Part shown: one piece after another, positions 3,850 through 8,322 of the stretch
How the letters are laid out: every line of letters starts with the position of its first letter
How positions within the stretch are numbered: the stretch's first letter is position 1
Virus record (IMG/VR): IMGVR_UViG_3300045988_101895
Length of the DNA: 39,041 bases
Direction: 5' to 3' (one strand)
Origin: a virus
Notes under the pieces: generated by a model
Database searches by the model: none
The model's input: the letters and a program-made list of their open reading frames with translations, nothing else
Told to the model about the DNA's origin: nothing
Program-made: the position numbers and the translations under genes

Positions 3850-3880
3850 CCTGTCCGCCTCCTCTCTTGATTACGTGAAC

Positions 3881-3909
3881 ATTATACTTTATCAAATAAA
3901 GTTTGTCAA
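3881..3909 (-). promoter_or_regulatory. main leftward early promoter, perfect TTGACA-17 bp-TATAAT
   Basis: On the minus strand, TTGACA is at 3909..3904 and TATAAT at 3886..3881. It is followed after 3 nt by CACGTAATCAAGAG (3877..3864), the same leader as at 10365-10378. Confidence 0.8.
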
Positions 3910-3929
3910 CGGTTTTTGAACAAAAAATA

Positions 3930-3957
3930 TTGATTAAATGAAGTTTTGTGGTATAAT
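3930..3957 (+). promoter_or_regulatory. rightward repressor promoter, TTGATT-16 bp-TGgTATAAT
   Basis: -35 at 3930-3935, extended TG at 3949-3950, -10 at 3952-3957, 21 nt upstream of the repressor ATG. Confidence 0.7.
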
Positions 3958-3978
3958 ATAGTAGGAAAGGAGGTAAAC

Positions 3979-4356
3979 ATGACATCACTAAGTGAAAGAA
4001 TCAAGGCTGTACGTAAGGCAGCCGGGCTGAATCAGAAGGACTTTGGCACAAAGATCGGTATCGGGATGTCCGCCGTGTCGCTCCTTGAGAGCGGCACGAA
4101 CAACCCGTCAGACCAGACGCTCCGCCTGATCTGCTCCGAGTTCGGTATCTCCCGCCGGTGGCTGGAGACCGGCGATGGGGAGATGATCGACCCGCAGGTG
4201 AGCAGCGACATCCAGTCCATCACCCGCACCATGGAGGGCCAGAGCGAGGCCAAGAAGCGGCTGGTCAGGTTCGTGGTCAACATGCCGCCGGATCTGGCGG
4301 AAGCATTTCTGGCGTATCTGGACAGCCAAACGCAAAAAGAAGACCCCCGGACGTAG
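3979..4356 (+). CDS. CI-like repressor, XRE-family HTH
   Basis: Start MTSLSERIKAVRKAAGLNQKDFGTKIGIGMSAVSLLESGTNNPSDQTLRLICSEFGISRRWLETGDGEM follows AGGAAAGGAGG. It is divergent from the early operon. Confidence 0.8.
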   Translation: MTSLSERIKAVRKAAGLNQKDFGTKIGIGMSAVSLLESGTNNPSDQTLRLICSEFGISRRWLETGDGEMIDPQVSSDIQSITRTMEGQSEAKKRLVRFVVNMPPDLAEAFLAYLDSQTQKEDPRT

Positions 4357-4373
4357 TGTCCGGGGGTCTTCCC
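4337..4373. terminator. bidirectional hairpin terminator between convergent genes
   Basis: GAAGACCCCCGGAC-GTAGT-GTCCGGGGGTCTTC forms a 14-bp stem. The repressor stop codon lies in the loop. An A-run precedes the stem and a short T-rich segment follows it. Confidence 0.65.
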
Positions 4374-4383
4374 TGTTTGGTGG

Positions 4384-5034
4384 TTACTTTAACAGCAGTT
4401 TCAGCAGAATCATGAGCGCCACGATGATCCCAGCCGCGATGATCTTGTCCTTTTTCTGTTTTTCTTTTTTCTCGGCTTCCGCCTGTTTCCGCGCCGCTTC
4501 GGCGCGTTTTTCGGCTTCCGCCCGGTCTTGGATCGCGGCGCGGGCACGCGCGGCTCTGGCCTCTCTTTCCCGGTCGACGATCTCTTGTCTTTTGGCTTTT
4601 TCCAGATCCTCTTTGTGTTTCTCGTCGTATTCCTTTTTTTCCTCGTCGGTCGCCAGAAAGCGCATCACGAGACGCGCGCCGAAGTTGAGTCTTTCGCCGT
4701 CCGCGTCCGTCCCTCCGCCTGACACTTCAAAGCAGCTGACCCCGGCGTATCTGTCCCAGTGGGACAGGACAAAGGGCAGCTCCGTTTTCGGCACATAGCC
4801 GACCATTTCCGGCTCCTCGCCGCCGCGCACCCAGATCTCGACCGCCGGTTGACCCTCAAACTCCGTCAGCTTCGGCCCCACGTCCCGCTCGGCGCTAAAG
4901 CTGTCGTATGGCTCGTCCTCCCAGTAGATCCTCCGCAGGATGGTTTGACGTGACCGACGGCCATTTTTGTGCGTTACTCCCGCAACGTGCATTTCGCAGT
5001 AAAGACAGTTGTCCCTGTACCCGATCAGTGGCAT
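4384..5034 (-). CDS. HIRAN-domain protein with K/E/R/A-rich coiled-coil linker and C-terminal membrane anchor
   Basis: N-terminal HVAGVTHKNGRRSRQTILRRI...EMVGYVPKTELPFVLSHWD resembles the HIRAN fold signature. Residues ~130-195 are a charged helix (EKAKRQEIVDREREARAARARAAIQDRAEAEKRAEAARKQAEAEKKEKQKK). The C-terminus IIAAGIIVALMILLKLLLK is hydrophobic. RBS AGGGAGGAC. Confidence 0.55.
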   Translation of the reverse strand: MPLIGYRDNCLYCEMHVAGVTHKNGRRSRQTILRRIYWEDEPYDSFSAERDVGPKLTEFEGQPAVEIWVRGGEEPEMVGYVPKTELPFVLSHWDRYAGVSCFEVSGGGTDADGERLNFGARLVMRFLATDEEKKEYDEKHKEDLEKAKRQEIVDREREARAARARAAIQDRAEAEKRAEAARKQAEAEKKEKQKKDKIIAAGIIVALMILLKLLLK

Positions 5035-5067
5035 AGACGCGTCCTCCCTATGGTTCTTTTTCTCATT

Positions 5068-5205
5068 TTAACGCGGCTCTGTGGCTTTTTCAATCCCTCC
5101 GCGCAGTTCAAGCAGGGTCTCGGCATAAATTTCCACCTTGTACAGGTCTAATTGGCACAAACTTTCCAGCAGTGCCAGCACGCGGGCGCGGTCGTCGGCG
5201 CTCAT
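5068..5205 (-). CDS. small hypothetical protein (45 aa)
   Basis: MSADDRARVLALLESLCQLDLYKVEIYAETLLELRGGIEKATEPR. The ATG overlaps the stop of the 38-aa ORF as ATGA. Confidence 0.45.
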   Translation of the reverse strand: MSADDRARVLALLESLCQLDLYKVEIYAETLLELRGGIEKATEPR

Positions 5206-5318
5206 CGGCCCACCTCCGCCCGGTACATCATCCGCACGACGCGGTAGATCTTCCGCAGGATCTCCGGCGTGCGGATCTCCTTCACCATCCGCAGGATCTC
5301 CTCCTGATAATTTGTCAT
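5202..5318 (-). CDS. small hypothetical protein (38 aa)
   Basis: Not in the track. ATG 5318 follows GGACGGAGGAATCAC. Translation: MTNYQEEILRMVKEIRTPEILRKIYRVVRMMYRAEVGR. Confidence 0.45.
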   Translation of the reverse strand: MTNYQEEILRMVKEIRTPEILRKIYRVVRMMYRAEVGR

Positions 5319-5340
5319 GTGATTCCTCCGTCCTTTCCTC

Positions 5341-5369
5341 TTGTCTTTTCGGGCGAGCCGTCCTATAAT
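5341..5369 (+). promoter_or_regulatory. rightward promoter for the HTH-TM/integrase operon, TTGTCT-17 bp-TATAAT
   Basis: -35 at 5341-5346 and -10 at 5364-5369. This leaves a ~120-nt leader containing the 16-bp palindrome at 5397-5412. Confidence 0.55.
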
Positions 5370-5396
5370 GGAGCCAGTGCAAGCGCTGGCCGTTGC

Positions 5397-5412
5397 TGAT
5401 ACTGGTGTATCA
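5397..5412. promoter_or_regulatory. 16-bp palindrome TGATACTGGTGTATCA (operator or recombination-site candidate)
   Basis: Perfect 6-bp arms TGATAC/GTATCA with a 4-bp spacer, in the divergent intergenic region of the lysogeny module. Confidence 0.4.
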
Positions 5413-5495
5413 CGTCGTTATGCGCGGACGCAATCCCATCTTTCTGGCGGTCGCCAGCGTTCGACAAATTTTTCTAGGGGAAAGAGGACAGAAAC

Positions 5496-6056
5496 ATGGA
5501 CAAAACCGAACAGGATCCTATGCAGCCGTATGATATGGACGCGCTCCGGGAGCACGTCAGGGCGGAAATGGCCCGGCAGGGCATATCCTCCCAAAAACTG
5601 GCTGATCTGACCATAAACTCGAAAGGCACCATCGACAACTTTTTGAATACTTCGACGGTTCCCGCCTTTGACCGGGTCTTCTCGATCTGTTCGGCGCTGG
5701 GTATTCCGCTGGATCCTCCGCCGGAGGAAGTGGAGGATCCCCAGCCCGAGCCCAGCTATGGCAGCGAGTACGTCCCCGACATGAAGGCCGCCCACCGTCG
5801 TGAAATGGAAGTAATGGAACGGAATGCCGCCGTCACGCTGGAAAACCTGAAAGAGGCCCACGCCGCGGAGATCGAGGCGCGGGAGCAGCACCTCCGCGCC
5901 GAAGTAAAGCAAATGCGCGTCTGGCGCGTGGTGGCGCTGGCCTTGCTTGTGATCTTGGTCGTCATCTGTCTATGGTTTGCTTGGGACGTGACCGGCGGGG
6001 ATCGTGGATTGATCCGCTACGGCCACGCGGCGATCGGCTCGCCGGTCAGAGGGTGA
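5496..6056 (+). CDS. membrane-anchored HTH (XRE-like) protein
   Basis: N-terminal MARQGISSQKLADLTINSKGTIDNFLN looks like an HTH. This is followed by a Pro/Glu linker, a helical region, then the TM segment VWRVVALALLVILVVICLWFAW. The gene stops 4 nt before the integrase ATG. Confidence 0.6.
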   Translation: MDKTEQDPMQPYDMDALREHVRAEMARQGISSQKLADLTINSKGTIDNFLNTSTVPAFDRVFSICSALGIPLDPPPEEVEDPQPEPSYGSEYVPDMKAAHRREMEVMERNAAVTLENLKEAHAAEIEAREQHLRAEVKQMRVWRVVALALLVILVVICLWFAWDVTGGDRGLIRYGHAAIGSPVRG

Positions 6057-6060
6057 GCGT

Positions 6061-7623
6061 ATGAAAGCTGTTATCTACGCCCGTTACTCCTCGGAGAAGC
6101 AGCAGGAGATCAGCATCGAGGGGCAGCTCCGGGTCTGTCAGGAGTTCGCGGCACGGGAGGGCTACGAGGTCGTGGACACGTACACCGACCGCGCCCTGTC
6201 CGCCAGCCGGGACGTGGAGCGCCGGGAGGATTTCCAGCGGATGATCCGGGACAGCAGCCGCCGGGGCTTTGACGTGGTCATCGTCTACAAGTTCAGCCGA
6301 TTCGCCCGGAATCGGTACGACAGTGCCGTCTACAAGGCCCGACTCCGGCAGAACGGCGTGAAGGTGGTCAGCGCGTGCGAGCCCATCAGCGCCAACCCGG
6401 AGGGCGCGCTGATCGAGGGCATTTTTGAGAGCCTCGACGAGTTCTATAGCAAGTCGTTGGCACAGGACGTGACGAGAGGAATGCACGAGAACGCCACCAA
6501 GGCCCTGTCCACCGGCGGCACCATCCCGCTTGGCTATGTGTCCGTTGATAAGCGGCTACAGATCGACCCGGCCACCGCGCCCGCCGTCCGGCTGGCCTTT
6601 GAGCGCTACGCCGATGGCATGAGCCTCGCCCGGATCGCGGACGAGCTGAACGCGCAGGGCTATCGCACCCGGGCCGGGAAGGCGTTCAACCGCTCGTCCT
6701 TTAACGCCCTGCTATCCAACAGGAAGTACATCGGCACCTATCATTATAATGGCGAGGTGGAGCTGGTGGGGCAAGTCCCGCCCATCGTCGACCCCGGCAC
6801 CTTCCGCCGTGTACAGGAGCGGCTCCGCAAAAACACGACGGCCCCCGGGCGCACCAAGGCCACGATCAATTACCTCCTGAGCACGAAGCTCTACTGTGGC
6901 GCGTGCGGCAAGCCCATGGCGGGGGAGAGCGGCCACAACCACTCCGGGACGCGGTACTACTACTACGCGTGCAGCGGGCGCAAGCGCCGCCTCGGGTGCA
7001 AGATGCCCACCCTCCGCAAGGACGACTTGGAGCGGCTGGTGGTGGAGCACGCCCGGGCGCTGTTAAGCCCGGGCAACATCAAGGCACTGGCCCACGCCGC
7101 CGCGGCTGAATATCAGCGTCAGGCCGAGGACGACAGCGCCGCCGTGTCCCTCCGCCGCCAGTTGGACGAGGTGACGCGCTCGCTGGACAACCTCCTGCGC
7201 ATGGTGGAGCAGGGCGCGGTCTCCGCCACGCTGGTGGGGCGCATCAACGAGCTGGAGGGGCGCAAAGCCAGCATCGCCGCCGAGCTGGCCGATGAGCAGC
7301 GCGGCGCGCCCGAGCTGACGGAGGTGGATATCCTGCGGTGGTTATCCTGTTTTGCGGATGGGTGTTTGGAGGATGAGGACTATATGCGGAATGTCATTGA
7401 TATGCTGGTGAATAAGATCGTGGTACAACAAAACCCGAACCAGAAGGTCTCTATCCTCGTGGCCTACAATCTGGCGGGCCGTGGGGATGAGATTTCTGGT
7501 TCGGGTTTGGTGGATGTGGTACACCAAGCCCGGCATAATCCGAACCTTTGCACCAGAGCAACGGAGTCTTGCATGACTTTCCTATTATATCATGGATGCG
7601 CGATATTTCAACTGGCGTCGTAA
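6061..7623 (+). CDS. int: large serine recombinase (phage integrase)
   Basis: MKAVIYARYSSEKQQEISIEGQ carries the catalytic Ser motif of the resolvase domain. It is followed by a recombinase domain, a zinc ribbon (CGACGKPM...YYYYACSGRKRRLGC) and a coiled coil. Length is 520 aa. Confidence 0.9.
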   Translation: MKAVIYARYSSEKQQEISIEGQLRVCQEFAAREGYEVVDTYTDRALSASRDVERREDFQRMIRDSSRRGFDVVIVYKFSRFARNRYDSAVYKARLRQNGVKVVSACEPISANPEGALIEGIFESLDEFYSKSLAQDVTRGMHENATKALSTGGTIPLGYVSVDKRLQIDPATAPAVRLAFERYADGMSLARIADELNAQGYRTRAGKAFNRSSFNALLSNRKYIGTYHYNGEVELVGQVPPIVDPGTFRRVQERLRKNTTAPGRTKATINYLLSTKLYCGACGKPMAGESGHNHSGTRYYYYACSGRKRRLGCKMPTLRKDDLERLVVEHARALLSPGNIKALAHAAAAEYQRQAEDDSAAVSLRRQLDEVTRSLDNLLRMVEQGAVSATLVGRINELEGRKASIAAELADEQRGAPELTEVDILRWLSCFADGCLEDEDYMRNVIDMLVNKIVVQQNPNQKVSILVAYNLAGRGDEISGSGLVDVVHQARHNPNLCTRATESCMTFLLYHGCAIFQLAS

Positions 7624-7656: not shown

Positions 7657-8322
7657 CTATTTGCGGACGATATAGCGCAGATAGCGCTCGACCTTGTCCG
7701 GCTGTGCGTCCGAGTCTCGGATGAAGTCGGCGGCCATATCGGCGTAGAAATCCGGGCTGTGGATGCCGTAGCGCTTTGCCGTGGCGGCGTAATCGCTGTA
7801 CATGGCGTTGGCCACCGCGTAGAAGGCCCAGAACTCCGGGCCGTCGGTGGGAAAGCCCTCCTTTTGCGCCAGAGGTTTCAGCGCTTCGGGCGACCACTTG
7901 CCGCCGCGGGGATGGTTGGGATCCGTCCCCTCCATGCTCTGCACCCAGCGCATGGCCGACTCTTGGTCGATCTCGCCGGTTTCTTCCTCCGCCGCTGTGG
8001 GGGAGTCCATCCAGACCGTGCCGGTGGCCTTGATAGCCGTTGGCTTGTGATCGTCCGCGCGAATCATGCCGCCGTCGTAGTGGGCGGCTCCGAATCCGAG
8101 GCGGCCTCCGTCATAGAGACCCGCCCGTGGCGGCTCCGTGTAGTCCGGCTGATGCCGATAGGGATCCGCCGTCATGCGGCGCTCCATCGGGTAGCCGTAG
8201 GCCTCCGTGCGCCGCTCTTCCGGCCAGTCGCGTTCCCTCCGTCTGCGAGTCTCCTCCGGGCGGCGTTCCTCCTCTCCCTCCTCGCGGGGGCGGGTGAGCA
8301 TCCTCATGGTGATACCATTCAC
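7657..8322 (-). CDS. hypothetical protein (221 aa), last gene of the accessory cassette
   Basis: GTG start at 8322, preceded by AGGAGGTGGCACGAC, forming a GTGA overlap with the upstream stop. The N-terminus is R/E-rich and the C-terminus (GPEFWAFYAVANAMYSDYAATAKRYGIHSPDFYADMAADFIRD) looks globular. Confidence 0.55.
   Translation of the reverse strand: MNGITMRMLTRPREEGEEERRPEETRRRRERDWPEERRTEAYGYPMERRMTADPYRHQPDYTEPPRAGLYDGGRLGFGAAHYDGGMIRADDHKPTAIKATGTVWMDSPTAAEEETGEIDQESAMRWVQSMEGTDPNHPRGGKWSPEALKPLAQKEGFPTDGPEFWAFYAVANAMYSDYAATAKRYGIHSPDFYADMAADFIRDSDAQPDKVERYLRYIVRK

Follow-up and report, generated by a model that had tools for sequence, protein, structure and literature searches.

Membrane-tethered HIRAN-like proteins in the lysogeny regions of temperate phages, with a tail-anchored member in a swappable gene slot

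What does a temperate phage gain from a protein that is tethered to the membrane and encoded between its repressor and its integrase? The question arises at positions 4384 to 5318 of the IMG/VR virus record IMGVR_UViG_3300045988_101895, a stretch of 39,041 nucleotides (nt), called the window throughout, which is the excised form of a ~39-kb temperate phage genome. Lysogeny-module genes expressed by prophages often decide which phages and which foreign DNA enter the cell, and to our knowledge such functions are almost entirely unknown in gut Clostridia. The minus strand, which holds nearly all genes of the window, here carries two tiny open reading frames (ORFs), ORF-a and ORF-b, and the gene for a protein of 216 amino acids (aa) with a HIRAN-like domain; strand, coordinates and translations agree with a preliminary description of this DNA, which had also placed the operon in a prophage lysogeny region, and in fact the repressor lies on one side and the genes for a helix-turn-helix (HTH) membrane protein and the integrase on the other. 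The answer developed here starts from what is observed at this locus and its relatives, namely how the genes and the domains of the product are arranged, how large the family is, that its members are mostly tethered to membranes and lie in lysogeny modules, and that the cargo is exchanged. The operon and the parts of its third product are as follows.

5202..5318, minus strand: ORF-a, small helical protein of 38 aa
5068..5205, minus strand: ORF-b, small helical protein of 45 aa
4384..5034, minus strand: cargo gene, encoding a tail-anchored HIRAN-like protein of 216 aa
4651..5007, minus strand: HIRAN-like domain, residues ~10-128 (AlphaFold2 pLDDT, the predicted local distance difference test, 95.5)
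4450..4647, minus strand: E/R/K-rich charged helix (spacer), residues ~130-195 (sequence and full-length model)
4390..4446, minus strand: C-terminal transmembrane anchor, residues 197-215 (mean Kyte-Doolittle hydropathy 2.56 over 19 residues)

The transmembrane segment at residues 197-215, the sole one in a hydropathy scan, is preceded by KKEKQKKDK and followed by a single residue; lying this close to the C-terminus, it forms a tail anchor and leaves most of the protein on the cytoplasmic side. The E/R/K-rich residues 130-195 are consistent with a rigid spacer: residues 141-215 form an unbroken helix in the full-length AlphaFold2 model, and by helix geometry ~65 residues would hold the domain ~10 nm off the bilayer. 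The highly charged helix of about 65 residues and the C-terminal anchor with its membrane tethering had both been proposed before, and both are borne out, the first by composition and model, the second by the transmembrane check. In the full-length model, which was built from a 12-sequence alignment, the domain is poor (pLDDT 43-48 at residues 21-40), and a Foldseek search with that model was uninformative; remodelled alone with a 48-sequence alignment, the domain reached pLDDT 95.5, with the element order b1-helix-b2-b3-b4-helix-b5-b6. The 216-aa protein has 11 close homologues and its identical sequence occurs on 34 contigs; the gene lengths and gene order of the operon are repeated in many independent contigs.

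The domain defines a large family. A domain profile run against 1.84 billion representatives recovered at least 348 clusters at 50% identity (E<=0.001). Among the best 120 members, none (0/120) has a precomputed match to the Pfam HIRAN family (PF08797), and those that are named are 'hypothetical protein' without exception; the family is therefore unannotated. Membrane tethering is its rule: 196 of 255 members (77%) carry a transmembrane segment outside the domain, and 59 carry none. Two N-terminal transmembrane helices are found in 89/255, and in 88 of these 89 the domain is cytoplasmic by the positive-inside rule; one N-terminal helix is found in 83/255 and three in 2/255, and 22/255 are tail-anchored like the window protein, with at most eight residues past the segment in all 22. 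Further fusion partners are a TM2 domain, zinc ribbons, an RNase_T 3'-5' exonuclease (P0094), an SNase nuclease and a BRCT domain; the RNase_T, SNase and BRCT fusions support a nucleic-acid-related role. The hosts are Oscillospiraceae, Lachnospiraceae, other Clostridia and one Bacillaceae; this is a family of temperate phages and prophages of Bacillota.

In the loci compared, the family is found beside the repressor and the integrase or transposase. In L047, a Konateibacter prophage, the HIRAN-like gene stands in the lysogeny module directly before a co-directional tyrosine integrase, with a CI-type HTH gene of the same strand farther upstream and, between the two, a Cro-like HTH gene that points leftward; in L048 it begins 14 nt past an HTH+Peptidase_S24 repressor, with the integrase downstream; in L050 a single strand carries HTH, ImmA-type protease, HIRAN-like gene and integrase; and in L052 it comes after the repressor. 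In phages with an rve-type transposase it is divergent from a leftward gene run that includes the transposase; the first gene of this run is of the HTH_3 type in L072 and a 96-aa ORF in L024. In L024, L072 and L075 an HTH_38 + rve (IS30-like DDE) transposase takes the place of the integrase, which suggests transposable temperate phages in Oscillospiraceae. From the contexts of L047, L048, L050, L052, L024, L072 and the window, the link with lysogeny control spans three integration systems (serine, tyrosine and DDE); no other clue to function is as strong as this association. The HIRAN-like gene is co-oriented with lysogen-expressed genes in most lineages.

Is the domain HIRAN? With the good model, Foldseek against BFVD placed two family members first and then the 'HIRAN domain-containing protein' of Lactobacillus phage LfeInf (E 4.3e-4), and it also returned a helicase and a Pol III alpha protein (TM-score 0.51-0.55). 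The LfeInf protein is a genuine Pfam HIRAN, scoring 31.1 bits against the PF08797 gathering score of 24.7 bits, and all but two of the relatives gathered for it have a precomputed PF08797 match; in the phage collection, tblastn with the LfeInf HIRAN matched nothing but itself. In hhalign, the family profile matched a set of 19 such sequences (18 PF08797-annotated relatives and the LfeInf protein, with an effective sequence number, Neff, of only 1.7) with 61% probability and E 8e-5 over 96 columns, approximately the whole domain; against the single LfeInf sequence the probability was 37%, so that the profile link is suggestive and not decisive. The Pfam HIRAN model itself is matched at E<=0.01 by 8 of 150 family members, the best at 5.8e-5. 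The strand and helix order of the model fits the HIRAN barrel, b1-b2-b3-b4-a1-b5-b6, with an extra helix after b1; the fold search of the PDB was without HIRAN among the 50 matches listed.

A series of results weighs against the assignment and, with it, against the DNA-directed function proposed below. In the window protein, the Pfam scan gave no HIRAN match even at E<=1, and its folded domain is without a match in PHROGs, PADLOC and NCBIfam; the scans of all three operon proteins against these four collections returned low-complexity noise at most for this domain and for the small ORFs. The precomputed matches are lacking among the best 120 members, as said. With the HLTF HIRAN sequence, hhalign gave a probability of only 5%; a Foldseek search of the PDB with the pLDDT-95 model produced no match at E<=0.001, and HLTF HIRAN was not among the 50 matches listed; and an hmmsearch of the family profiles against PDB sequences found no HIRAN. 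The HIRAN hallmark NxYDxNA is absent, an invariant EGxPA standing in its place: in the hhalign alignment 'EPDNQYDSNAVKV' lies opposite 'LTEFEGQPAVEIW', and 'NQYDSNA' opposite 'EGQPA', so that the hallmark Asp aligns with the family-invariant Gly61 and the hallmark Tyr with Glu. In HLTF, the Asp of this motif contacts the 3'-OH. Because the motif aligns to the invariant EGxPA, binding of 3'-OH DNA ends cannot be assumed for the family, nor can an HLTF-type ligand chemistry in general. What the family has instead is a signature of its own, GVT(F/H)KNGR.SRQTILR, with invariant R29 and Q30, G79 and a GGG at 106-108. By these remote profile and fold links, the domain is probably a divergent branch of the HIRAN fold. 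The HIRAN-like domain of the preliminary description is thus upheld as a remote relationship, and not as a direct Pfam match with the hallmark residues; the capture of DNA ends at the membrane, which had been proposed along with it, may apply, and is weakened by the loss of the HLTF motif.

The position that this gene occupies in the window is set by the following features.

3946..4356, plus strand: CI-like HTH_3 repressor, convergent with the cargo gene (HTH_3 E 3.9e-13; repressor PHROGs)
4336..4374, both strands: terminator hairpin (terminator-like call), common to the cargo operon and the convergent repressor gene
5065..5093, minus strand: promoter-like site at the 3' end of ORF-b, just 5' of the cargo gene (TTGAAA-17-TAAAAT, 10/12 matches)
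5319..5495: control region that separates the divergent small-ORF and HTH-membrane/integrase operons
5496..6056, plus strand: XRE-type HTH protein with a C-terminal transmembrane segment, 186 aa (HTH_3 E 5.5e-4; phrog_3 repressor E 2e-8), here the HTH-membrane protein
6061..7623, plus strand: large serine integrase (Resolvase, Recombinase and Zn_ribbon_recom domains; phrog_95 E 8e-121)

Within the operon, the stop codon of ORF-a overlaps the start of ORF-b in an ATGA, 33 nt separate the ORF-b stop from the start of the cargo gene, and a ribosome-binding site of the GGAGG type lies 6-8 nt 5' of each of the three ORFs; the overlap and the strong ribosome-binding site had been noticed before and are both present. 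ORF-b is the ATG-started portion of a 104-aa TTG ORF (5068..5382) in the program's ORF list. No terminator was called between ORF-b and the 216-aa gene in the window. The latter ends 10 nt before the GC-rich hairpin at 4336-4374 (15-17 pairs, 10 of them G-C), which was called on both strands, in keeping with the bidirectional terminator that had been described for the end of the third gene. The control region 5319..5495 holds a promoter-like site on the plus strand (5341-5369); no consensus promoter was called on its minus strand, a repeat scan gave weak inverted repeats and nothing more, and an Rfam scan of the window found no RNA element.

The third position of the operon is a slot in which genes are exchanged. 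Among 10 distinct contexts with an identical ORF-a, four have the 216-aa gene and six a gene of 283 or 290 aa; in five sister phages (L055, L061, L062, L064 and L065) ORF-a, ORF-b, the HTH-membrane protein and the integrase are kept and the 216-aa gene is absent. Other cargo follows ORF-b in these five and in L106, L108-L110, L112 and L113, and is of several kinds: proteins of 283 or 290 aa with a lipoprotein-like signal peptide (MKRFLAALLCAVVLCAAAPAVA...), a signal-peptide protein of ~276 aa (306 aa as called), and a GNAT-like 205-aa protein together with a 292-aa protein that is Big_2-type and secreted by the look of its sequence. The stretch that joins the stop of ORF-b to the ATG of the cargo gene is conserved across cargo types in the phage group and contains TTG..A-17-TAAAAT and then a GGGAG ribosome-binding site; as this is so whatever the cargo, co-transcription of the cargo with ORF-a and ORF-b is plausible. 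The promoter-like element at 5065..5093 is retained as TTG[AA/CC]A-17-TAA[A/G]AT in sister phages with other cargo, and this retention may merely reflect the coding sequence of ORF-b. Repressor identity across the sister phages is 50-99%. The 216-aa gene is moron-type cargo in a swappable slot of the lysogeny region: it is polymorphic for presence and absence among near-identical phages, and as candidate signals of its own it has the terminator and, at 5065..5093, a promoter-like site that is a consensus match only; its homologue in L053 has a clear terminator and promoter. The operon is structural, and the coupling of the small ORFs to the cargo appears not to be functional.

What, then, is the 216-aa protein for? 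The reading that we favour, with modest conviction, is a lysogen-expressed, DNA-directed exclusion or defence factor. The tail anchor fixes the protein in the inner membrane, and the charged helix of ~65 residues holds the HIRAN-like domain on the cytoplasmic side; made in the lysogen, the protein would there bind incoming nucleic acid at the inner membrane face, that is, the DNA of a superinfecting phage and possibly transforming or conjugating DNA, and the outcome would be exclusion or restriction of the entering foreign DNA. To the points listed above that count against this come three more: the gene of the window is oriented in the lytic-gene direction, opposite to repressor and integrase; the 216-aa protein is unmatched at E<=1 by the known and candidate defence models of PADLOC-DB; and 50,697 GenBank phage records contain no homologue (megablast of the region, tblastn of the protein and of the family consensus). 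Phage and family are known solely from metagenomes and metagenome-assembled genomes.

One conserved domain is joined in this family to alternative modules (1-2 transmembrane helices, TM2, a C-terminal anchor, SNase, RNase_T, zinc ribbons), a variety that mimics the logic of a sensor with variable effectors in many defence proteins; furthermore, pairs of HipA and HIRAN form the candidate defence system PDC-M03 (PMC13245101, PMC11706625). The domain could accordingly be pictured as a sensor of phage DNA ends or replication intermediates, whose attached module kills or arrests the cell in abortive infection. This appears unlikely: a single tail anchor after a rigid helix of 65 residues would hardly serve as a pore former, 59 of 255 members have no transmembrane segment, and PADLOC was unmatched.

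Improbable as well is the view that the domain is not functionally HIRAN-like, being a module for binding protein or ligand in a lysogenic-conversion factor that acts on a membrane process of the host and has nothing to do with DNA. The missing hallmark motif and the lack of HIRAN among the structural matches listed for the PDB speak for it, as does the alternative cargo of the slot, which consists of secreted or surface proteins typical of conversion genes; against it speak the basic residues in which the conserved motif is rich (K/R..RQ within GVT.KNGR.SRQTILR), the fusions to two nucleases and a BRCT domain, which point to nucleic acids, and the profile and fold links to genuine HIRAN proteins.

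Distinctly unlikely is a part in the phage's own DNA transactions, either in anchoring its genome, its replication or its injected DNA to the membrane, or in feeding DNA damage into the switch between lysis and lysogeny. The lytic orientation of the window gene would suit this role, the succession of anchor, helical spacer and nucleic-acid-type domain recalls phi29 p16.7, and in L050 the gene comes directly after that of an ImmA-type protease in a regulatory operon; yet the gene is dispensable, a secreted protein taking its place in about half of otherwise near-identical phages, and in other lineages it points the same way as repressor and integrase and not as the replication genes.

There remains the part of the two tiny proteins. 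That ORF-a and ORF-b are real genes, as the preliminary description had taken them to be, is borne out: both encode small helical proteins under strong constraint. Distinct codon changes over 20 loci are 6 synonymous versus 2 non-synonymous in ORF-a, where ~24% synonymous would be expected; ORF-b has 16 synonymous and 29 non-synonymous codon changes, the latter mostly in the C-terminal tail, residues 1-32 being constrained and the tail free. The identical 38-aa ORF-a is found on 946 contigs, and the 90% clusters hold 18 distinct sequences of ORF-a, 104 of ORF-b, 196 of the 216-aa protein and 490 of the HTH-membrane protein. A shared motif persists in the more remote homologues of either small ORF; for ORF-a it is I..MV..I.....L.K[IL]Y..V.R[MI]Y, retained at 30-50% identity, and homologues of ORF-b are recognisable in L065, L053 and L051.

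A dedicated three-component system, in which ORF-a and ORF-b would regulate the membrane protein, act as its chaperones or partner it in the manner of antitoxins, would agree with the ATGA coupling, the 33-nt gap and the uninterrupted course of the operon, and with the same order in close relatives and in L053 (where the HIRAN-like protein is 38% identical), but it is very unlikely and already largely refuted by the comparative data: sister phages with an identical ORF-a and a near-identical ORF-b, HTH-membrane protein and integrase have unrelated third genes; in L051 and L052 the small ORF(s) run divergently from the HTH/integrase operon, and the HIRAN-like gene is encoded on the strand opposite to them; in L053 the small ORFs and the HIRAN-like gene are set apart by a terminator and a TTGACT-17-TGnTATAAT promoter; L098-L105 have the small ORFs but no HIRAN-like gene; and the unrelated prophages L047, L048 and L050 have the HIRAN-like gene but not the small ORFs. 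The specific coupling of the tiny proteins to the HIRAN-like protein that the preliminary description had proposed did not withstand this co-occurrence check, which found swaps, opposite strands and each without the other.

Their constant companion is another gene. That of the HTH-membrane protein, which lies between the operon and the serine integrase, divergent from ORF-a, and on which the preliminary description was silent, accompanies ORF-a and ORF-b in every locus that has them, phages with tyrosine integrases included; L098-L105, for instance, in which no HIRAN-like gene was found, combine homologues of ORF-a and ORF-b (with an ATGA-type overlap), a 42%-identical HTH-membrane protein and a tyrosine integrase. 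From the swaps of the third gene and the small ORFs without a HIRAN-like gene it follows that the constant unit is the HTH-membrane regulator with the divergent ORF-a and ORF-b, the third gene being swappable; by this comparison of gene contents, ORF-a and ORF-b appear to be functionally part of this separate conserved unit and not partners of the HIRAN-like gene. The HTH-membrane protein of the divergent unit (window 5202-6056) is co-transcribed with the integrase, and the unit occurs with serine as well as tyrosine integrases. No family annotation exists for this unit, which may be a switch made of small proteins that controls integration, excision or lysogeny. An excision factor of the serine integrase was considered for ORF-a and ORF-b; this is weakened, the pair being found with tyrosine integrases also.

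Taken together, membrane-tethered HIRAN-like proteins could be a widespread class of prophage gatekeepers, and ORF-a, ORF-b and the HTH-membrane protein, separately, an integration/excision switch; this joint reading is tentative and, as a whole, rather doubtful. If the gatekeeper part were true, the proteins would sit where DNA-entry routes open into the cytoplasm and would capture the ends of arriving DNA or mark them, superinfecting phages would be excluded, and natural transformation might be blocked, which would shield the prophage from deletion by imported DNA ('chromosomal curing').

Several observations concern the neighbourhood of the operon. In the switch between repressor and early lytic genes (3850-3990), the minus strand carries a perfect TTGACA-17-TATAAT promoter (3909..3881), which faces a plus-strand promoter (3930..3957), and repeated TTGATTAnnTGAA-like motifs could be operators; the repressor probably starts at an ATG near 3979 (giving 125 aa, the length called in L001 and L004), not at the TTG at 3946. 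Directly downstream of the integrase, on the minus strand, lies a 221-aa ORF (window 7657-8322), whose same-position counterparts in sister phages match DUF7841 (PF25223). In integrated copies (L107 and L113 at 1265-2758) the integrase has 497 aa, compared with 520 aa, and the integrated and excised sequences part after '...GTGGTACACCA' (window ~7490-7623), beyond which the integrated copies continue into the apparent 3' half of a host tRNA gene; as they diverge there into tRNA-like sequence, the integrase ORF itself seems to contain the attachment site, and the last ~30 integrase residues seem to be exchanged on integration. L113, a 58-kb contig, is apparently a short prophage remnant with integrase, HTH-membrane gene, ORF-a and ORF-b, cargo, repressor and a few early genes, after which a DUF7841 fragment and a host ABC-transporter gene come next. 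The early genes of sister phages include a homologue of the anti-CRISPR family AcrIC5, a weak match to the anti-Thoeris protein Tad2 and a MazG gene (L004 340-567; L002 11775-11996 and 11446-11778).

The analysis thus defines a large unannotated family that is strongly tied to lysogeny and has a consistent design, a nucleic-acid-type domain at the inner face of the membrane, and it provides concrete candidates for exclusion or defence in abundant phages of the human gut. The slot being polymorphic in nature, with the HIRAN-like gene in about half of the phage population and a secreted protein in the rest, it amounts to a natural experiment on the effect of the gene. The second unit, two ultra-conserved tiny proteins and a membrane-anchored HTH regulator beside the integrase, may be the more unusual of the two.

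Among known systems, the superinfection-exclusion proteins Sie2009 of lactococcal phages and Ltp of Streptococcus thermophilus phage TP-J34 are encoded between integrase and repressor. Like the 216-aa protein they are small, membrane-associated, dispensable and variably present at the same position of the lysogeny module; the likeness is positional, however, as Ltp is an extracellular lipoprotein and the folded domain of the 216-aa protein faces the cytoplasm. A likeness of architecture links the protein to p16.7, an early replication protein of the lytic Bacillus phage phi29, which also combines a membrane anchor, a helical or coiled-coil spacer and a cytoplasmic nucleic-acid-binding domain; p16.7 differs in its N-terminal anchor and its unrelated DNA-binding fold, and it is not a swappable gene of a lysogeny module.

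HIRAN domains are also known from HLTF and Rad5. With canonical HIRAN (PF08797; HLTF/Rad5, LfeInf gp044) the family shares a similar size and the order of strands and helices, a first strand VxG(V/T)T(F/H) and the core 'A(V/I)xV ... (I/V)GY(L/V)PK'; it departs from it in lying below the Pfam threshold, in having EGxPA for NxYDxNA and its own invariant RQ and GGG, and in being tethered to membranes as a rule. Standalone HIRAN proteins occur in phage replication modules (PMC6469090), and HipI is a HIRAN partner of HipA-like kinases in the candidate defence system PDC-M03 (PMC11706625, PMC13245101). HipI likewise is a prokaryotic HIRAN-type protein in a context of conflict or defence, but it is soluble and paired with a kinase toxin, and no gene for a HipA-like kinase is among the neighbours examined of the HIRAN-like genes.

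The closest counterpart by description is thaL, a gene name that appears in a single mention, in 2025, for the pneumococcal prophage phiRMV8 and is given without functional work (PMC12637031). The concept of a lysogeny-associated transmembrane HIRAN protein has therefore been named already, its function not; no second account of a lysogeny-module HIRAN protein with a membrane anchor was found in the literature, and the statement of the preliminary description that a membrane-tethered prophage HIRAN has no described role agrees with this (PMC12637031). As thaL is described, both are membrane-anchored HIRAN-type proteins of the lysogeny module, encoded beside the repressor; unlike thaL, the 216-aa protein is tail-anchored, has the long charged helix and lacks the HIRAN hallmark motif. 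Since the 50,697 GenBank phage records hold no relative of the family at the level of BLAST, thaL may belong to canonical HIRAN. The combination of a transmembrane segment and a HIRAN-type domain that characterises thaL is found in the 216-aa protein if remote homology is accepted, and the location in the lysogeny module is found both here and in independent prophage lineages.

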